64,000 nt of DNA from Candidatus Actinomarina sp. (GCA_038142145.1 JAYQJM010000005.1:515816-579815), one strand, 5' to 3'; shown: positions 2,929 to 28,987, counted from the stretch's first letter. Notes: generated by a model from the sequence alone, not told the origin. Made by a program: numbers and translations.

Positions 2929-3192
2929 TTAAGTATTTTTAGGTATTAATAAAATATCATCAACATTTAATTTAGAATTGCTTATTTTATTTATCATTTT
3001 TACTTCGTATAAAAACTTTTCATAGTTCTCTATATTGAGTTTCTTCCCTATTTTCCATAAAGTATCACCCCTTTCAACTTTATATTCAACAAGTTGATCA
3101 ATTTCAGACTCAACAAATGGTTCTTTTGCAATATCTATCATTAAAAAACTAAAAATATAAACCAGAAATACAAAAATTACTTTAACTTTCAT
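2929..3192 (-). CDS. Membrane-anchored LysM domain protein (ChiZ/Rv2719c-like position)
   Basis: N-terminal TM helix plus a LysM motif (YKVERGDTLWKIGKKL...LNVDDILLIP). It is divergent from lexA and shares the SOS-box intergenic region, as in the mycobacterial nrdR-Rv2719c-lexA arrangement. Confidence 0.7.
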   Translation of the reverse strand: MKVKVIFVFLVYIFSFLMIDIAKEPFVESEIDQLVEYKVERGDTLWKIGKKLNIENYEKFLYEVKMINKISNSKLNVDDILLIPKNT

Positions 3193-3229
3193 AATCTAAA
3201 TATAGAAATGAGGTGTGACAAAATTTAAT

Positions 3230-3245
3230 TCGAACATTTGTTCTA
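3230..3245. promoter_or_regulatory. LexA operator (SOS box) in the lexA/LysM divergent promoter region
   Basis: TCGAACATTTGTTCTA matches the actinobacterial consensus TCGAAC-N4-GTTCGA at 15 of the 16 positions, counting the spacer. It lies just upstream of the lexA -10 element. Confidence 0.7.
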
Positions 3246-3250
3246 ATTTG

Positions 3251-3259
3251 TGTTATAAT
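3251..3259 (+). promoter_or_regulatory. Extended -10 promoter element of lexA (TGTTATAAT)
   Basis: A perfect TATAAT at 3254..3259 is preceded by TGT. The lexA ATG (3266) lies 7 nt downstream, so the transcript would be leaderless or nearly so. Confidence 0.5.
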
Positions 3260-3265
3260 CATCCT

Positions 3266-3850
3266 ATGAAAAAACAACTGGAAATACTTAATTTCATTAA
3301 TCAAAAAATTGAAAAAGAAGGATATTCACCTTCAGTAAGAGAAATTGCGTCTGCTGTAGGGTTAAAATCTACAAGTTCAGTTCAACATCATATCAATAAT
3401 CTCGTTTCTAAAGGACTGTTAAACAAAAAACCTAACATTTCAAGATCATTTGTAAAGAATTCTCCAATAAATAATGTAAAATTAGTCCCAATAATTGGTG
3501 CAATATCAGCAGGTACACCATTAATGGCTGAAGAAAATCACATTGGAACAATTCCAATTCCAGAAGAAAAATTTAATAAGAATTTATTTGCTTTAAGAGT
3601 TTCTGGAGATTCTATGATAGATGCAGGCATTTTTAATGGAGATACAGTAGTAATTAATAAAGACATTGAACCTAAAGATGGTGATATTGGAGCTTTTATG
3701 GTTAATGAAAATGAAGCAACAATAAAATTTCTAGACACAATATCCGGTAAAAAATATTTAATACCAGCAAATAAAAATTATGAAAATATTCTTGTCAATG
3801 ACTTTATACAACCTGTTGGTAAAGTTGTCAGTTTATTTAGAGATATTTAA
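3266..3850 (+). CDS. lexA: LexA repressor
   Basis: Start at ATG 3266 (MKKQLEILNFINQKIEKEGYSPSVREIASAVGLKSTSSVQHHINNL, a wHTH). Ala-Gly cleavage site (ISAGTPL), catalytic VSGDSM and Lys (ATIKFL). Confidence 0.9.
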   Translation: MKKQLEILNFINQKIEKEGYSPSVREIASAVGLKSTSSVQHHINNLVSKGLLNKKPNISRSFVKNSPINNVKLVPIIGAISAGTPLMAEENHIGTIPIPEEKFNKNLFALRVSGDSMIDAGIFNGDTVVINKDIEPKDGDIGAFMVNENEATIKFLDTISGKKYLIPANKNYENILVNDFIQPVGKVVSLFRDI

Positions 3851-4571
3851 CATCTCCCTTAAGATATAACTTATCATTTTCAAATTTTAGATTTAAATCT
3901 CCACCTGGATACATAACAAAAGAGTTGTTTATAACCTGCTTTGTTGCATATAGGTAATTAAACAAACATAGAGCACCTGATCCACATGCATCAGTTTCGC
4001 CAACCCCTCTTTCAAAAACTCTTGATTTTATATATTTATTATCTATGACTTGATAAATTTCTAAATTAACTCCATTTTGAAAGTGTTCAGAACTTGAAAT
4101 GATTTTATGAGCATTTGATAAGTCAAAATTGTCAACATTTTCTACTTCAACTAAAAAATGTGGGTTACCAACATTGGATTTGATGCCAGATATATTTCCT
4201 ATATTTATATGATTACTATCAAAATTAGGTAATGGTGCATCTACCTCTACCTCATTTTCAGAAACTGTTGCATCAATATCCCCTACTGGTGTAATTACCT
4301 TAAAATTTGGTGTTGAAACTAAATCATTATCATAGGCATAATAAGCAGAACATCTCACACCGTTAACACATAATTCTGCTTCAGAACCATCATTATTGAA
4401 ATAATGCATTTTTATACATTGATCATTAACGGATTCAACAAAAATTACACCATCTATATCTACATCTGCATCACTAACTAATGCAATTATCTGAATTTCT
4501 GATACTGGCCCGTCATAAATACCAACCAAAAAATCATTCCCAGTTCCAGACATATAAGCAAAATTACTCAT
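3837..4571 (-). CDS. dapF: Diaminopimelate epimerase
   Basis: Motifs GNDFLV and NPHFLV, plus the two catalytic Cys contexts CVNGVRC and ETDACGSGA. Confidence 0.85.
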   Translation of the reverse strand: MSNFAYMSGTGNDFLVGIYDGPVSEIQIIALVSDADVDIDGVIFVESVNDQCIKMHYFNNDGSEAELCVNGVRCSAYYAYDNDLVSTPNFKVITPVGDIDATVSENEVEVDAPLPNFDSNHINIGNISGIKSNVGNPHFLVEVENVDNFDLSNAHKIISSSEHFQNGVNLEIYQVIDNKYIKSRVFERGVGETDACGSGALCLFNYLYATKQVINNSFVMYPGGDLNLKFENDKLYLKGDVKYL

Positions 4572-17335: not shown

Positions 17336-19288
17336 ATGAGTAAAGATAAAAATAATTTAGAACAACAAATTGTTGAAGACTTTGAAAAAATAAGGCCAGC
17401 AATTACCAGACTTTTACAAACCCAATTAGACAATGAGAACATTTCTCTTAGATATGGAAGAACTTCTTCGTCTGATAACAATGACATTGTAATAAACCCA
17501 TCAATTTTGGTTAAAGCATTGTCTGAATCAAAATTAGATAAAGAAGAAGTTTTAATTGGAACGGTAGTGCATGAAGCGATACATTCAACTCAAAATTATT
17601 CATTCAACCAACAACAACTAACAGAAAGATTTGGAGAGGATTTATCTGATGTAGGTGACTTAGAAGATGTTCTTGAATATCTAGCTGGTCCTTTTGGGAA
17701 ATATATTTTTGAAATACTTATTCACTCAATAGAAGAAAGAATTTTTGTAAAAGAATATGATGGACTTACCTCAATTCTTAAAGATGTTTATGAAGAATCA
17801 TTTCACCAAATAAAAAATCTTAATCCATTTAATCAGTTTCTTAGTTTACTTTTTCACTCTATTACATCATATATTTCGCTTAAGTACGACAGTTATAAAA
17901 AACCAGTGGTGAAATCACTAAACGAATCTTTGCAACTCCTAAAACCTTTAAATTATTCAGAAGTAAACGTATCAGAAGTTGTAGAAGTAACAATTCAAAT
18001 TATTGATATTTGTAGAAGATTTAATATCCTTCCTGATATCGAAAAATATAACCTTGGTGAACAACGTGAAATATTAGAAAATTTTGAAGACTCTGTTGTG
18101 GATGGAATGAGCAAAACCCTAATACCATCATCTAACAACATTACAACCGGCAATACTCTTCAAAAATTTCTTGGTCAAGACTCAAAAAATCCAAATGAAG
18201 AGAAGATCAATCAAATGGATGATCATATCTCAAAAATTGGTGCATCATCAACTATTTACTTGCCATCAGGTGATATTTCGAAAATAATTGAAACAAAATT
18301 GCCTGATAAATTTAAGTATTTATCAGATAAAGGAAATAAAACATTTGAATCTTTATTGAGTGACTGGAACCTACCAATTTATAAAGTAACAAACAAGATA
18401 AAACCTTATTTTATTCATAACCAAAAAAGGCAAAGAATAAGTGGCTTTGATCAAGGAGACTTGTCGCCACATGTTCCGACAATGCTTGCATCAGGCAGAT
18501 ATGAAAGAATGTTTGAACAAAAACAAAGATTATCAAACAAGTCTTATGCAATATCACTTTTAATTGACGGGAGTGGTTCAATGCTTGAAAAAAATAGAAA
18601 TGAACTTTATCCATGGTCTCTTACTTCTGCTTTGCTTGGGGCTAGCTATTTATCTCAAATTTGTTATGAACTAGATATGGATTTTGAAATGGCTATTTTC
18701 AACAGAGGCTTTGTATCAGATTTTAGTGAGAATGAAGACACCTATATAAAAAGAAAGTACAGTGTCTCATCAATGTTAAACAGTACTTACGGATCTGCAG
18801 CTCAAGAAATTTACAATACCGCTAATCATTACTTTTTAAAGGAATTTAAAGACTCTTGGAAAGATAATTACAAACAATTCATCGGGCTAATAGAGTTTTC
18901 ACGCCATTTAAGAAACTCTATAAACGATATTGAAGATAAAGACTTCTACCCTCCCATCAGTATGTTTGAAAAAGGCACGAACATAGATGAAATCAATATA
19001 ATTCATGCTTCCAAACGTTTATTATCTCATCCATCTAATACAAAACTTTTAGTTGTTCTCTCCGACGGAATGACCAGAGGATCTGTTGAAAATCTAAAAA
19101 GTAGTATAAAATTTGCTACAAAACAAGGTATTGAAGTTATCGGAATAGGTATTGGCAATAGAGGGTCTTGGAAAGAATATCAAAATAATGTTCAAGTTGA
19201 ACATCCTGAACAACTAATACACTCTATCGTAAATATCACAAAAGATATACTTATTAAAAATGCAAAGAAGAATATCGGAGTTGCTTAA
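17336..19288 (+). CDS. CobT-like protein with C-terminal vWA domain
   Basis: 650 aa. The N-terminal region resembles the CobT N-domain (FEILIHSIEERIFVKEYDGLTSIL) and contains an HExxH string (VVHEAIHS). The C-terminal vWA domain has MIDAS LLIDGSGSM and LLVVLSDGMTRG. Confidence 0.6.
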   Translation: MSKDKNNLEQQIVEDFEKIRPAITRLLQTQLDNENISLRYGRTSSSDNNDIVINPSILVKALSESKLDKEEVLIGTVVHEAIHSTQNYSFNQQQLTERFGEDLSDVGDLEDVLEYLAGPFGKYIFEILIHSIEERIFVKEYDGLTSILKDVYEESFHQIKNLNPFNQFLSLLFHSITSYISLKYDSYKKPVVKSLNESLQLLKPLNYSEVNVSEVVEVTIQIIDICRRFNILPDIEKYNLGEQREILENFEDSVVDGMSKTLIPSSNNITTGNTLQKFLGQDSKNPNEEKINQMDDHISKIGASSTIYLPSGDISKIIETKLPDKFKYLSDKGNKTFESLLSDWNLPIYKVTNKIKPYFIHNQKRQRISGFDQGDLSPHVPTMLASGRYERMFEQKQRLSNKSYAISLLIDGSGSMLEKNRNELYPWSLTSALLGASYLSQICYELDMDFEMAIFNRGFVSDFSENEDTYIKRKYSVSSMLNSTYGSAAQEIYNTANHYFLKEFKDSWKDNYKQFIGLIEFSRHLRNSINDIEDKDFYPPISMFEKGTNIDEINIIHASKRLLSHPSNTKLLVVLSDGMTRGSVENLKSSIKFATKQGIEVIGIGIGNRGSWKEYQNNVQVEHPEQLIHSIVNITKDILIKNAKKNIGVA

Positions 19289-20271
19289 TGGTTAAATTTG
19301 AAAACCCTGGTAAACAAAAAAATTATATTGAACTTAACGAATGTGTTGTAGATAAGAAATTAGATGATTATGAATCTAGGTTAAACAGAGTTCCAGAAAT
19401 TGATGACTATTATGTCGACCTTGGTACTCAATTTAGGCTTGCTCAAGTCATAGAAGCCAAATTAAATGCATTTAAAAATGAACTTCCTATTCATGTAGCT
19501 TTAAAAGGCCATATGGGTACTGGTAAAGATCACGATATAGAACAATTCGCAGCAAAATTAAAATATCCATATTACAGAATTCCCCTCTCTGGTGAAGTCA
19601 GAGATGTAACTTTGCTTGGGTCCGTACAATTATATGGAGATGGCAAAGGTGGTACAGAAAGTAGATGGCAAGATGGAGAACTAACAAGAGCTTTAAGAGG
19701 ACCTGCAATTGTAAATCTCTCAGAGTTAAATGCAGCTGGTCCAGAAGTTTTATTTGCCCTTCACTCACTATTGGATAGGCATAAAAAACTAGAGCTACCT
19801 AATGGTGAAGTACTTCAACTTAGAGATGATACATTTATATTTGGAACTATGAACCCCACAAGCCTAAGAGATTATGCGGGTACACAATCATTAAATAAAG
19901 CTTTTGCTGATAGATGGGTAATTTGGGATAAGCCTTTTCCAAATAAAGAACAACTTGAATCAATATATTTAAAGAGGTATCCAACTTTACAAAAGTCATA
20001 TACAGATTTAGTAATAAAACTAGCTTTAGAGATAAATAATTCGTTTATGTCAGATGACATCAGTGTAAATATTGAAACCCCTATGAGTTTACGAACTATT
20101 GTCGAAAGAATACCTTTAGGTTTGAAAGTAAGTTCCGATGCAGATGATCCATTAAAAGAAGCATGGGGAAATTTCGTTCTTCCCCACGTAAGCAAAGAAG
20201 ACTTAGATCATTATCAAACTTTGTGGAACACGATAGTAAGAAAAGGGCCGTCTGAAAAACCTAAACTTTAG
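19288..20271 (+). CDS. CobS-like AAA+ (MoxR-class) ATPase with non-canonical Walker motifs
   Basis: GHMGTGKDHDIEQFAAKLKYP, VNLSELNAAGPEVLFALHSLLD and YAGTQSLNKAFADRW parallel the CobS motifs GYHGTGKSTHIEQVAARLNWP, VFDEYDAGRPDVMF and YHGTQQINQAQMDRW as I recall them. Its start overlaps the stop of the CobT-like gene. Confidence 0.7.
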   Translation: MVKFENPGKQKNYIELNECVVDKKLDDYESRLNRVPEIDDYYVDLGTQFRLAQVIEAKLNAFKNELPIHVALKGHMGTGKDHDIEQFAAKLKYPYYRIPLSGEVRDVTLLGSVQLYGDGKGGTESRWQDGELTRALRGPAIVNLSELNAAGPEVLFALHSLLDRHKKLELPNGEVLQLRDDTFIFGTMNPTSLRDYAGTQSLNKAFADRWVIWDKPFPNKEQLESIYLKRYPTLQKSYTDLVIKLALEINNSFMSDDISVNIETPMSLRTIVERIPLGLKVSSDADDPLKEAWGNFVLPHVSKEDLDHYQTLWNTIVRKGPSEKPKL

Positions 20272-25527: not shown

Positions 25528-26391
25528 TTAAATTTTAAATAAATTTTTACCTTCAAACTTTTTTGTCCCATTCACATAACTAAAGTATTTTCTGCATTCA
25601 CAAGATTGATACTCTATGTCAATAGGATAAAACTCTCTTTTCGCTTCAGGCCAATACTCTTTTTGAAGTTCTATCATTTTACTGCCTACATCTTGGTGGC
25701 TATCTAAATTTAAATACTTTTGTAGCCTGTCTAAATATGGCTCAGCCCCTATACCCGTAGGAACATCAGTGGTGATTGGTATTACATCTTCTCTAAACCA
25801 AGCAATATCAATTAATGCCATAAATATTGGGAAGTCATTATTCATCTTAAATTGTTTATTTACATTGTTTGTAGCAGCAATAACATCTCTATTAGAATTT
25901 AATATAATTTCAGCTAACTCTTCTTTTTTTTCATAAAATTTATATGTTGCAGCATCAATTCGTTTATATATCTTTTCACCCCAGTAAGAATCATGTACTG
26001 GGTATGCTGTGAAATTCTCCCATTGTTCTAAACCAAGGAGTTTATTTTTTAAAGCTTCTGGATTACTTAAATCATTTATTGTTAATTGATTAATAGTTAA
26101 ATCTCTGTTGCACCACCTACTGAAAAATAATGCTTGGATTAATAAAGGTAAGTCCCCTTTTGCTGGTTCAGCAAATTTAATTATTGATTTACTTACTTTG
26201 TCATCTTCTCTAAAAACATTTAAAAAACGCCCCTTTTGTAAAATCGGATCATCGCTCCAAGGATATCCTTCTCCTGACTCTCTTTTTACACGTACAGCTT
26301 CACGTTTCTTGCAGTAATCAAAAAAACTTTGTACAGGGTCTACTATTATTAATCCATCAAGTGAATTTGCATATGGATTTTCTAAAACCAT
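25528..26391 (-). CDS. Hypothetical protein, possibly of the helical-domain family linked to thymidine hypermodification (5-hmdU DNA kinase helical domain / aGPT-Pplase-like)
   Basis: 287 aa with no P-loop. The motif block KRESGEGYPWSDDPILQKGRFLNVFREDDKVS ... ALFFSRWCNRDLT ... FTAYPV resembles, from memory, the PWTxDPILxxYRFTNxxRExDRxT ... FRxFN ... FTGAY pattern of that family. It lies 34 nt downstream of umuC on the same strand. Confidence 0.4.
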   Translation of the reverse strand: MVLENPYANSLDGLIIVDPVQSFFDYCKKREAVRVKRESGEGYPWSDDPILQKGRFLNVFREDDKVSKSIIKFAEPAKGDLPLLIQALFFSRWCNRDLTINQLTINDLSNPEALKNKLLGLEQWENFTAYPVHDSYWGEKIYKRIDAATYKFYEKKEELAEIILNSNRDVIAATNNVNKQFKMNNDFPIFMALIDIAWFREDVIPITTDVPTGIGAEPYLDRLQKYLNLDSHQDVGSKMIELQKEYWPEAKREFYPIDIEYQSCECRKYFSYVNGTKKFEGKNLFKI

Positions 26392-26425
26392 ATCTTTAAT
26401 TAAAACAGATTATTCCCGACTTTTC

Positions 26426-27691
26426 TTACTTCACAAATGGTATTTGAAACATGTTTGTTGTGTAAGCACCAGACTTTTTTTCTGACTTCATTTTCCAATC
26501 TTTTTTAACACCTTGTGCTCCCAGCATTAATGCACTTGAGCCATATCTAGCATTGACGCTATCTAATGTTTTCATAACACTATCTGATAGATCATAATTC
26601 TCATACTCATAAAAACTATATTGTTCATTTTCTGCATCAGTAATGTCCAGCAACATAACGCCAATTTTTTGATATTCATACCCATATATAAAAAGTTTTC
26701 TTGTTAATCTTTTTACTTCTTTGATAATTTTTGAAGTATTGCTTGTTGGAATTGTAAAAAAAGCACTCACACCATTGCTATACCTCTTGTCTGGATCGAT
26801 GAATGGACTTGTTCTTAGGAAAACATACACACCTCTTGCTCTAGAATTCTGAGATCTTAATTTCTCACATGCTCTTGATGTATAGTTTGACACAGCTTCT
26901 TCTAACTCCTGTAAGAGCATGACTTTTCTTCCGAATGATTTAGAGGAGATTATATTCTTCTTGTTTTTTACCTCTTCAATATCAATACACGAAACTCCGT
27001 TTAACTCGTGGTGTATTCTCTCTCCAACAATGCTCAGAGTTTTTCTCACATAGCGTGGATTTGCTTTAGCTAAATCAAGGGCTGTCTCTATACCAATCTT
27101 TCTAAGTCTTCTTCCCCATCGTGTAGAAATTCCCCAAATTTCCTCTAATGGAAGCTGCTCTAAAATTCCCTCTCTAATTGCTTCATCTCGTATATCAAAA
27201 ACATTAGAGGCTTCATATTTTTTGGCCTGCCTATTTGCCACTTTAGCCAAGGTTTTAGAAGGACCAATTCCTATGGACACAGGTATCCCTGTCCACTGCT
27301 TGATAAGGCTTCTAATTTCATGAGCAGTTTCTTCTAAGTCACAGTAGTAAAAACTACTAATATCTAAAAAGGCCTCATCAATTGAATAAATCTCTATATT
27401 TTTAACAAGAGATTTTAACGATGTCATAACACGAGCTGACATATCTCCATAAAATGTGTAGTTTGATGAAAAAACATGAACATTATTTCTTTTGATTAGT
27501 TGTTCATATTTAAAATACGGAGCACCCATTGGAATCCCCAAAGCTTTTGCTTCGTTAGACCTTGCTACAACACATCCATCATTATTAGAAAGTACAACGA
27601 TTGGTTTCCCTTCAAGACTTGGGTTGAACACCCTCTCACAAGATGCATAAAAATTATTACAATCTACTAGGGCAAAAATTTTATTATTCAC
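26426..27691 (-). CDS. umuC: Y-family translesion DNA polymerase, UmuC-like
   Basis: GTG start preceded by [56 protein letters not shown] parallels the E. coli UmuC N-terminus, and the catalytic SIDEAFLD is present. Confidence 0.85.
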
Positions 27692-27705
27692 TTACTTACT
27701 CCTTT

Positions 27706-27723
27706 GAATACTGTACACTATTC
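27706..27723. promoter_or_regulatory. Near-perfect 18-bp palindrome in the umuC / umuD-like divergent control region (candidate operator)
   Basis: GAATACTGTACACTATTC has 16 of 18 positions self-complementary (GAATA-c-TGTACA-c-TATTC). It does not match the host TCGAAC-N4-GTTCGA box. Confidence 0.4.
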
Positions 27724-27745
27724 TAAGAAAAAAGAAAGACATTTT

Positions 27746-28261
27746 ATGCCTCGAGGTGGAGCAAGAAAAGGAGCCGGTAGACCGAAAGGTCAAGGTAAGT
27801 ATGGAGAGCAGACAAAAGCTATCCGTATTCCTGTAAGTAAGGTTAAATATATTTCTGAAATTGTCAGTAAGGGGCTTTATGAAGTTCCTATGTACAGCAA
27901 TAAAGTGGCAGCTGGATTTCCATCCCCTGCTGATGATTACCTAGAGGATAAAATTGATCTCAATCAATATCTAGTCAAGCATCCTGCAGCTACATTTCTT
28001 GTGAGGGCATCTGGAGAATCAATGATTAATGCTGGTATATTTCCAAATGATATTTTAGTTGTCGATAGGAGTTTAAAAGCTGAAGAAGGAAAAGTGGTTA
28101 TAGCTGTTGTGGACAATGAGCTTACTGTAAAAAGATATCGAAAAAAAGGTAAGAATATTGTTCTAGAACCTGAAAACGAAGCCTACGATCCCATTATTAT
28201 TTCAGAGGAAAGTGAAGCATTTGTTTGGGGTGTTGTTACCAATGTCATTCACAACCTATAA
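27746..28261 (+). CDS. umuD: UmuD-like S24 peptidase with extended basic N-terminus
   Basis: Start taken at ATG 27746 (MPRGGARKGAGRPKG...). VAAG-FPSPADDYLEDKIDLNQYL, ASGESM and TVKRY parallel the UmuD cleavage site, catalytic Ser and catalytic Lys. Confidence 0.8.
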   Translation: MPRGGARKGAGRPKGQGKYGEQTKAIRIPVSKVKYISEIVSKGLYEVPMYSNKVAAGFPSPADDYLEDKIDLNQYLVKHPAATFLVRASGESMINAGIFPNDILVVDRSLKAEEGKVVIAVVDNELTVKRYRKKGKNIVLEPENEAYDPIIISEESEAFVWGVVTNVIHNL

Positions 28262-28264
28262 AAA

Positions 28265-28987
28265 TTAGATTTTTGCTTTACCCCAATAGTTATATCCCAA
28301 AAACTTCTGTGTTCCTGGTAAATAGATGTTGTCTAAATTTATGAAGTTAAATCCTGCATTTTTTAAAAGCATTTCTATATTTCTATTAGTGTGACAACCT
28401 CCTGAAATTTCGGGATAAAAAAAGTCTGTTGAGTTTTGTATAAAAGATACAAATTTATCGGGTGATAAACCATGTTCAGAAAATATAAAAATACCATCTT
28501 TCTTAAGGACTCTTTTAATTTCTTGTAAAGTTTTATCAGGTTCAGGAATTGAACATAATGCATAAGTACTAACTACAGTATCTATTGAATTGTCTTCAAC
28601 CGATAATTTACTAGCTGACTCTATCAAAAATTCAATATCTAAATCATGCTTGTTAGCTCTTTTTCTAGCTATTTCATTTAATTCTATTGAAGGATCTATG
28701 CCATATATTTTTTTTATCTTAGAACTGTCATAATGTTTCAAGTTAGACCCTGGTCCAATACCTATTTCTAGAACAACCCCGTATGCTTCAGGTATCACTT
28801 TCTTTCTTTGATAGTCAATAGGTCGAGAATTACATGTTGTATTAATTAATACTGGAAGAATATATTTTTCATATAAAGTTTTACTAAAAAGACGAATAAT
28901 TGGAAAAATTAAAAATAATAATATATTTGAAACAATTAGATATACTAACTTTTTCAAATTAATGTCCTCCTCGAGGAACTCCCCCAT
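28265..28987 (-). CDS. Class I SAM-dependent methyltransferase with N-terminal TM helix
   Basis: Motif I VLEIGIGPGSN and post-I IYGIDPS, in a Methyltransf_11-like layout. Confidence 0.75.
   Translation of the reverse strand: MGEFLEEDINLKKLVYLIVSNILLFLIFPIIRLFSKTLYEKYILPVLINTTCNSRPIDYQRKKVIPEAYGVVLEIGIGPGSNLKHYDSSKIKKIYGIDPSIELNEIARKRANKHDLDIEFLIESASKLSVEDNSIDTVVSTYALCSIPEPDKTLQEIKRVLKKDGIFIFSEHGLSPDKFVSFIQNSTDFFYPEISGGCHTNRNIEMLLKNAGFNFINLDNIYLPGTQKFLGYNYWGKAKI

Follow-up and report, generated by a model that had tools for sequence, protein, structure and literature searches.

A divergent umuD-umuC module with a conserved intergenic palindrome and a lineage-specific HMUDK_hel neighbour in Candidatus Actinomarina

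Organization of the locus

We have investigated positions 25528-28261 of a DNA sequence from Candidatus Actinomarina sp. (GCA_038142145.1 JAYQJM010000005.1:515816-579815), in which a gene for a Y-family DNA polymerase of the UmuC type is followed on the same strand by a gene encoding a 287-aa protein, referred to here as hel, and is transcribed divergently from a umuD-like gene encoding an S24-type protein. The window refers throughout to the whole 64,000 nt of this sequence, from the first letter of which positions are counted. The following features are present, with the basis of each assignment in brackets.

25528-26391, minus strand: hel, 287 aa (open reading frame (ORF) list and PF18723)
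26392-26425, minus strand: umuC-hel spacer, 34 nt (without a terminator-like site)
26426-27691, minus strand: umuC, Y-family polymerase of the UmuC type, 421 aa, GTG start (Pfam, NCBIfam and catalytic motifs)
27692-27745, no strand: divergent regulatory region, 54 nt (alignments of 28 + 4 loci)
27699-27705, minus strand: AAAGGAG ribosome-binding site (7 nt upstream of the umuC GTG)
27706-27723, no strand: palindromic operator candidate GAATAcTGTACAcTATTC (single in the window, kept with the umuD-umuC intergenic region)
27746-28261, plus strand: umuD-like gene, long form, 171 aa (Peptidase_S24, NF007621 and phrog_811 UmuD-like)
27746-27913, plus strand: N-terminal arm of UmuD, residues 1-56, beginning MPRGGARKGAGRPKGQGKYGEQTKAIRIPVSK (conservation among homologues; DNA binding is predicted)

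An earlier note on this DNA, made from the sequence alone, had placed umuC and the 287-aa gene in this order on one strand with the umuD-like gene divergent from them, an arrangement confirmed by the ORF coordinates, which give a gap of 34 nt between umuC and hel and a plus-strand umuD ending at 28261. Only the start of umuD required correction. The mechanically assigned start, TTG at 27704, leaves a gap of only 12 nt between the divergent genes; because the relatives are all called at 171 aa, the true start is probably the ATG at 27746. All three genes, umuC, umuD and hel, are under purifying selection, with ratios of nonsynonymous to synonymous substitution (dN/dS) of 0.03-0.17.

UmuC and a long form of UmuD

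The predicted UmuC protein carries the IMS (PF00817, E 2.7e-39), IMS_C (PF11799, E 5.9e-21) and DUF4113 (PF13438, E 1.8e-17) domains of Pfam, and the catalytic acidic residues are present in the translation as the D of the DxxxFY motif and the DE of the SIDE motif (YSIDEAFLD). The earlier description of this gene as a UmuC-like Y-family polymerase with its catalytic site is thereby upheld and, judged by its domains and motifs, the protein is the catalytic subunit of a DNA polymerase V (Pol V)-type enzyme. The domains, the acidic motifs and the adjacency of the two genes are shared with E. coli umuDC, which encodes DNA polymerase V (UmuD'2C).

The product of the divergent gene is matched by Peptidase_S24 (PF00717, E 9.6e-31), by the NCBIfam UmuD model NF007621 (166 bits, cut-off 110) and by phrog_811 (UmuD-like), and its score on the LexA model, 101.9 bits, lies below the cut-off of 110.95. 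As in the S24 protein UmuD of E. coli, an Ala-Gly cleavage-site motif, here Ala56-Gly57 (VAAGFPSPADDY), is combined with a Ser/Lys dyad, here Ser92 (GESM) and Lys129 (TVKRY); the spacings of 35 and 37 residues are presumably equal to those of G25, S60 and K97 in the E. coli protein. The two differ at the N-terminus, where the arm predicted to be cut off by autocleavage comprises 56 residues, compared with 24 in E. coli UmuD, and where a basic motif is conserved. The start of this arm, MPRGGARKGAGRPKGQGKYGExTKAIRIP, is kept almost residue for residue in homologues at 58-84% identity, among which G4, G5, R7, A10, G11, R12, P13, K14, G15, G17, E21, T23, R27, P29 and S31 are invariant. In the arm a basic Gly/Arg-rich segment precedes a short strand and a helix, and its GRP core with the flanking basic residues is AT-hook-like, in the sense of a resemblance only.

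A metagenome scan with an alignment of the long-form UmuD returned 80 loci, from which it is apparent that this form (171 aa, N-terminus M-x-R/H-GG-x-R-x-GAGRPKG...) is widespread beyond Actinomarinales in classical umuD-umuC operons. The divergent arrangement is observed only in Actinomarinales. In the window and in every Actinomarinales locus umuD is divergent from umuC rather than upstream of it in one operon, whereas umuD and umuC are co-directional in all other umuC-bearing long-form loci among the 80. Gene arrangement therefore separates the locus from E. coli umuDC, as do the operator, in which no LexA box is recognisable, and the host, a low-GC streamlined actinobacterium. In one outgroup long-form locus (L095:580-7110; L numbers are our handles for loci) an extra 105-aa ORF lies between umuD and umuC, and the module adjoins HTH_17, prim-pol/DUF3987 and Terminase_2 genes, in what looks like an integrated mobile element with the module as part of it.

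A palindrome accompanies the long-form umuD

An 18-bp palindrome, GAATACTGTACACTATTC, in which 8 of 9 positions are paired, is located at 27706-27723 and occurs once in the window, in agreement with the earlier observation that the module carries a palindrome of its own. It is exact, and present once per locus, in 35 of the 35 fetched Actinomarinales loci that cover the umuD-umuC intergenic region. This region as a whole, 54-56 nt in length, is nearly invariant in the 35 loci, at a divergence at which the synonymous sites of umuC are near saturation (pS about 0.7). The palindrome was not found in loci having hel without umuC or umuD. Candidate -10 elements, TAGAAT toward umuC and TATTCT toward umuD, would both overlap the arms of the palindrome.

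In many long-form umuD-umuC operons outside Actinomarinales the palindrome likewise overlaps the promoter. L157-L163 have a GAATAnTGTAC(A/G)nTATTC site 45-83 nt upstream of the co-directional umuD, and L183-185 and L199 have it with one mismatch. In L093, a locus of 44% GC, the palindrome lies between TTGACT and TATTCT upstream of umuD (L093:4840-5003). The strict site is absent from a further group of long-form umuD loci, L164-L182, in which a variant of it may serve. As the GAATAnTGTACAnTATTC site accompanies the long-form umuD across hosts and gene orders, it is best explained as a site bound by the gene product. Considered together, the palindrome and the long-form UmuD suggest self-repression, by analogy with UmuDAb of Acinetobacter, a UmuD homologue which acts as a LexA-like repressor (PMC4807011). 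Both proteins are UmuD homologues with an extended N-terminal region, both are associated with a palindrome in a divergent promoter region, and relief by self-cleavage is what we propose for the protein examined here. The devices differ, as the N-terminal domain of UmuDAb is about 78 residues long and modelled as a winged helix-turn-helix, while the arm examined here is shorter, Gly/Arg-rich and without a helix-turn-helix, and the UmuDAb operator is AACTTGAA-N11-TTCAAGTT, compared with GAATAnTGTACAnTATTC here (PMC4807011). The divergent partner also differs, being ddrR for UmuDAb and umuC in Actinomarina, where the repressor function is a proposal.

A somewhat unlikely alternative is that the palindrome is an SOS box of the host LexA, with the S24 protein serving only as a Pol V subunit and the arm having no role in DNA binding. 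Classical umuDC operons are LexA-controlled and the arm contains no recognisable DNA-binding domain, which are both in keeping with this alternative. It is difficult to reconcile with the occurrence of the same site with long-form umuD in unrelated hosts, including the 44% GC locus and L157-L163, and in both gene arrangements, given that LexA motifs differ between phyla. The palindrome is, moreover, unlike what we take to be the actinobacterial box, TCGAAC-N4-GTTCGA, or the Cheo box, and the arm is far more conserved than expected of a disordered tail. Binding of the palindrome by the long-form UmuD itself is the explanation that we retain.

Inheritance of the umuD-umuC module

Close homologues of UmuC, UmuD and hel are found in single-cell genomes and metagenome-assembled genomes (MAGs) of Candidatus Actinomarina and other Actinomarinales. 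The module has constant neighbours, comprising pnp, DUF2179, acyltransferase, 5-formyltetrahydrofolate (5-FTHF) cyclo-ligase and luciferase-like monooxygenase genes on one side and short-chain dehydrogenase/reductase (SDR), BtpA and MDMPI_N genes on the other, and the synteny of umuD and umuC is kept at UmuC identities of 99, 86, 78, 71 and 55% to the window. Since the locus, the intergenic region and the palindrome are shared down to 55% UmuC identity, the module is, as judged by these comparisons, ancestral to the order Actinomarinales and vertically inherited within it, and not a recent acquisition. A rough neighbour-joining (NJ) tree places the UmuCs of Actinomarinales in a single clade, with marine Alphaproteobacteria/Rickettsiales-like sequences as nearest neighbours; the founding lineage of the order may have acquired the module long ago, either from marine Alphaproteobacteria-like lineages or in common with them.

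The earlier note had considered the cassette to be horizontally acquired and to lie in the least conserved part of the window. That it is a recently acquired island or the cargo of a mobile element appears very improbable. Actinobacteria usually use ImuA'-ImuB-DnaE2, the nearest homologues of both UmuC and UmuD outside Actinomarinales are marine Alphaproteobacteria/Rickettsiales-like, the outgroup copy in L095 stands beside a prim-pol/terminase element and flanking gene content is variable, all of which can be counted in favour of an island. Opposed to this are the identical synteny throughout the order, extending to 55% UmuC identity, the apparent monophyly of the Actinomarinales UmuCs in the NJ tree, the lack of an integrase, tRNA or repeat signature in the ORF list of the window and a base composition which, when compared with the window, shows no anomaly, GC being ~32% across the window and 0.31-0.37, ordinary for it, at 25-28 kb. 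Identity to orthologues is also of the order found for core genes, the cassette genes being 85-92% identical compared with 83% for polynucleotide phosphorylase (PNPase), so that at the protein level the cassette does not lie in the least conserved stretch. Thus, vertical descent within the order is retained, and of the horizontal origin proposed earlier only an ancient event is still possible.

hel belongs to a family known from phage thymidine hypermodification

The 287-aa protein, previously listed as being of unknown function, is matched by PF18723 (HMUDK_hel, formerly aGPT-Pplase clade 1) with 63 bits against a cut-off of 25, the best stretch covering only residues 20-72, and the same family is matched by 22 of 22 diverse hel homologues; the family is DNA-related rather than housekeeping. 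The original description of aGPT-Pplase is reportedly that of Iyer et al. in 2013. phrog_2396 matches hel over its full length, and an alignment with ORF13 of Pseudomonas phage Ab18 spans both proteins (hhalign probability 99.9%, E 2e-35). The ORF13 gene lies between those for a P-loop 5-hydroxymethyldeoxyuridine (5-hmdU) DNA kinase, which in that record is probably mis-annotated as a small terminase, and a thymidylate-synthase-like hydroxymethylase. A close hel relative is named 'putative DNA base hypermodification protein' by NCBI, a name which probably overstates current knowledge.

Structure prediction with AlphaFold2 gave an all-helical model, with a predicted local distance difference test score (pLDDT) of 94.8 from a 22-sequence alignment and 32.7 from the single sequence. 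The model is similar to predicted structures of the helical domains of the phage phiRSL1, PhiW-14 and SP10 5-hmdU DNA kinases (Foldseek E 9e-7 to 3e-5, template modelling (TM) score 0.61-0.72). Thus hel is like phage aGPT-Pplase clade 1, the helical domain of the 5-hmdU DNA kinases (5-HMUDK; Ab18 ORF13, SP10, PhiW-14, phiRSL1), in full-length profile homology, in a predicted fold that is the same (TM 0.6-0.72) and in a CE-x-x-KY motif common to hel and Ab18 ORF13. A TM score of 0.62 was obtained to the predicted structure of a protein with an amino-acid:DNA transferase (AADT) domain, AADT or aGPT-Pplase clade 2 (M6 gp51, PaMx11 gp46, 15599 Pplase2) having a similar helical fold containing a helix-hairpin-helix (HhH). 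An HhH-like GIGA hairpin is present in hel at residues 213-216, and R30, W45, D48, R61, D64, G215, C264, E265 and K268 are invariant. A search of the Protein Data Bank (PDB) with the hel sequence gave nothing significant, and a relationship to HhH DNA glycosylases, considered as a candidate, was not confirmed, the best PDB matches (OGG 3i0w, DUF2419 7uk3) having E values of at least 0.5 and TM scores of about 0.2.

The C-terminal E-x3-C of hel aligns, below significance, with the metal-binding Glu and the catalytic Cys of AADT. In 15599 Pplase2, E222 and T223 are metal ligands and C226 is catalytic, within an E-T-I-L-C motif (PMC13458397), and hel may keep counterparts of this metal-binding Glu and catalytic Cys. 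From this sub-significant local alignment and the conservation of the residues, hel may be catalytic, with a chemistry related to that of AADT and directed at C5-substituted uracils in DNA, and not a passive helical module. It differs from AADT in lacking significant sequence similarity to it (E 0.15 by hhalign against a single AADT sequence, 0.073 against a profile) and in that the host has no evident pathway to an activated 5-PmdU substrate.

The close clade of hel (58-98% identity) was followed in 83 cellular loci, comprising 80 fetched loci and three contigs of one close relative, and the family in 55 phage loci. In the phage loci, hel homologues are beside or fused to the P-loop 5-hmdU DNA kinase in 37, dUMP hydroxymethylase in 49 and AADT in 23, whereas genes for the 5-hmdU DNA kinase, AADT or the hydroxymethylase were found neither in the window nor in the 83 cellular loci. 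Published in vitro reconstitutions did not depend on aGPT-Pplase clade 1 (PMC8989533). A few relatives of hel, in a Rhodothermales MAG and in two further metagenomic sequences (P0121, P0123, L082), do carry a P-loop domain, AAA_28, in fusion. These proteins (P0121 and P0123 in L090 and L091; L082:6001-7490), the closest relatives of hel outside Actinomarina at 51-58% identity, carry AAA_28 at the C-terminus (GPCSGKST), which is a 5-hmdU-DNA-kinase-like architecture on contigs that are short and apparently cellular or metagenomic, one of them from an assembly of millions of contigs (GCA_002998485.1). In NC_026594.1 (ORF12; L092:4414-4983) and similar Pseudomonas and Bordetella phage records the kinase beside the hel homologue bears the annotation 'terminase small subunit', likely a mis-annotation of the P-loop 5-hmdU DNA kinase given its position in a hypermodification cluster.

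hel is linked to umuC in a single subclade

The order in which umuD is divergent from umuC and umuC is followed by hel is observed in only one Actinomarina subclade, comprising 32 loci (L001-L027, L035-L037, L039). Neither umuC nor umuD was found within about 6 kb in any of the 51 other cellular hel loci or in any of the 55 phage hel loci and, reciprocally, only one of the 80 long-form umuD loci, an Actinomarina locus, contains hel. In other Actinomarinales hel is preceded either by a run of carB, pyrF, a DHO_dh-like gene and a 118-aa gene, at a gap of 3-6 nt, or by an ABC permease gene, in Marinimicrobia (SAR406) it follows lptF/G, and further contexts place it after an old-yellow-enzyme gene or a glycerophosphotransferase gene. 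Sister Actinomarina clades have umuD and umuC in the same place with an SDR or major facilitator superfamily (MFS) gene directly downstream and no trace of hel. As hel is not linked to umuC outside one subclade, a general role as an accessory of Pol V, the function suggested for the 287-aa protein in the earlier note, is unsupported and should not be propagated in annotation. A regulon shared by hel and umuDC was also considered and rejected, there being no operator upstream of hel where it is not linked to umuC.

Within the subclade, the umuC-hel spacer is 34-35 nt long and terminator-free, and its 3' half (ATCTGTTT(T/A)AATTAAAG) is conserved in all loci with this order. These properties make co-transcription, and hence damage-inducible expression of hel, plausible in the subclade, and umuC and hel are probably co-transcribed. 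The homologous spacer sequence favours a single move of hel behind umuC.

Several further observations concern the history of hel. In most other Actinomarinales hel occupies the last position of a pyrimidine-biosynthesis cluster (carB, pyrF, DHO_dh-like gene, 118-aa ORF), which is found at about 4300-6850 in L028, L030-L033, L038 and L040-L050, and the 118-aa ORF preceding hel gives a faint phosphoribosyltransferase hint; this position of hel may be a coincidence of genome compaction or a hint of a link to pyrimidine metabolism. When the window is compared with L005, L020, L024 and L026, synonymous divergence is lower in hel (pS 0.34-0.53) than in the adjacent umuC (pS 0.68-0.74), a gap that suggests recombination or different histories of the two neighbours. 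In an NJ tree, hel of L057, L058 and L069, from Actinomarina with the pyrimidine-operon context, groups with Marinimicrobia sequences (L043-L080) and not with the remaining Actinomarina sequences, which may reflect inter-phylum exchange or an artefact of the tree.

It can be asked whether hel is a true partner of the polymerase within the one subclade, that is, a damage-induced enzyme acting on pyrimidine lesions, for example 5-hydroxymethyluracil or other thymines altered at C5/C6, recruited there by selection. The adjacency has been held through long divergence, hel being 67-98% identical with synonymous sites near saturation, the short, terminator-free spacer keeps its 3' half, the family is directed at DNA bases and its putative active site is conserved, and Actinomarina lives in sunlit surface water (PMC7771536). 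We nevertheless consider such recruitment unlikely, as sister Actinomarinales hold the identical umuD/umuC locus without hel and have hel elsewhere without the operator, and hel is not linked to umuC in Marinimicrobia, in phages or in other carriers of long-form umuDC. Moreover, hel always lies a few nt behind whichever gene precedes it in these compact genomes, which makes adjacency weak evidence. hel is, in our assessment, a lineage-specific passenger from the phage DNA-hypermodification family, with lineage-specific recruitment as the doubtful rival.

A second possibility is that hel is an anti-phage factor which recognises hypermodified or 5-hydroxymethyluracil (5hmU)-containing phage DNA, with no role in host repair and an accidental umuC neighbourhood. 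Apart from the cellular members, the family is carried by phages and associated with 5hmdU chemistry, and aGPT-Pplase domains have been predicted, not validated, to be defence-associated by DefensePredictor (PMC13092281). This possibility is improbable considering that hel occupies fixed housekeeping positions, and not defence islands, in very streamlined genomes, that it is under strong purifying selection and that PADLOC, which matched neither UmuC nor UmuD, also gave no match for hel. The passenger interpretation of hel is followed below.

A model for the locus

Combined, these results favour, with a probability of about 0.6, a reading of the locus as a Pol V-type module of ancient origin and vertical inheritance which is probably self-regulating, and of hel as a cellular member of its family relocated in one subclade and no general partner of the polymerase. 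In the mechanism that we propose, a dimer of the long-form UmuD would bind GAATAnTGTACAnTATTC by means of its basic N-terminal arm, and the bound palindrome would cover the -10 elements of both divergent promoters, such that umuD and umuC are repressed together. DNA damage would lead to RecA-stimulated autocleavage at Ala56-Gly57, dependent on the Ser92/Lys129 dyad, and to removal of the arm. This single cut would both lift repression and yield UmuD', activating UmuC for translesion synthesis. Located behind umuC in one subclade, hel would be damage-inducible there if, as is probable, it is co-transcribed, and the protein would probably act on C5-substituted pyrimidines in DNA.

A number of observations weigh against this reading or limit it. 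UmuC narrowly misses the cut-off of the NCBIfam UmuC model NF002955, with 425.2 bits against 431, although the next best model, Pol IV, reaches only 184 bits. At 50-58% identity, the strict palindrome is missing from approximately every second long-form umuD locus, and one copy of the site is present per genome fragment examined, which keeps LexA control as a rival. No Pfam match at E<=1 and no recognisable winged helix-turn-helix were found in UmuD residues 1-57, and the arm is a candidate DNA-binding part predicted from sequence conservation and not by experiment or structure. With respect to hel, its stable adjacency to umuC in the subclade with a partly conserved spacer fits a real functional recruitment, and in its poorly resolved NJ tree the loci that have the umuC context are not clearly set apart from those that lack it. 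The PDB fold search with the hel model gave no significant match, and the alignment of E260-x3-C264 on the AADT motif E-T-I-L-C is weak (hhalign against the profile, E 0.073, 27 columns).

As a system umuDC is of a known kind, and what is unusual here is its host and its form, in which the two genes diverge, UmuD is of the long type and the operator accompanies it. Two aspects may be new, the probable self-repression by the long-form UmuD and the cellular HMUDK_hel clade that is conserved in abundant marine bacteria; neither was mentioned in the literature covered by targeted full-text searches or in the Actinomarinales genome papers PMC7771536 and bioRxiv 10.64898/2026.04.03.716425, in which LexA, UmuC and SOS are not mentioned. 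Few free-living bacteria of the sunlit ocean are as small and as abundant as Actinomarina, which renders each retained gene informative. If self-repression by the long-form UmuD is true, it would represent a compact, LexA-independent SOS-like switch common to several marine lineages, paralleling UmuDAb of Acinetobacter with a different DNA-binding device. Similarly, hel shows that cells have a conserved branch of a family known only from thymidine hypermodification in phages. The active site of this branch is probably intact as judged by its conserved residues, and the branch provides a concrete target for a new DNA-base transaction in bacterioplankton. The boldest form of the proposal, which we put forward as speculative and rather unlikely, is that the long-form UmuD represents an undescribed, widespread bifunctional class, a LexA-independent self-repressor with an AT-hook-like arm in which one autocleavage both derepresses and activates Pol V, and that it is linked with a cellular HMUDK_hel clade, common in abundant streamlined ocean bacteria (Actinomarina, SAR406), which would be a new Cys/metal-dependent enzyme for the repair or editing of pyrimidines in DNA, descended from the hypermodification machinery of phages and wired into a damage-inducible operon in one Actinomarina lineage.

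Neighbouring genes

Gene content directly outside the block varies among close genomes. An alpha/beta-hydrolase gene lies between a methyltransferase gene and umuD in most relatives (e.g. L001:5221-6120) and is absent from the window (28261-28265). ORFs of 488-875 aa are found between hel and the MFS gene in some relatives (L010, L011, L017, L020), one of them with an IF2_N-like N-terminus. In other Actinomarinales (L084, L086 and L088, about 3075-4420) a gene for a 447-aa radical-SAM protein is located between the luciferase-like monooxygenase gene and umuD (or a flavin reductase gene), and this gene is missing in the window and its closest relatives. Elsewhere in the window, at 17336-20271, the gene for a 650-aa CobT_C/VWA-like protein shares one base with that for a 327-aa AAA_5 (MoxR-like) ATPase, and this pair is conserved, being present also in relatives (L001).

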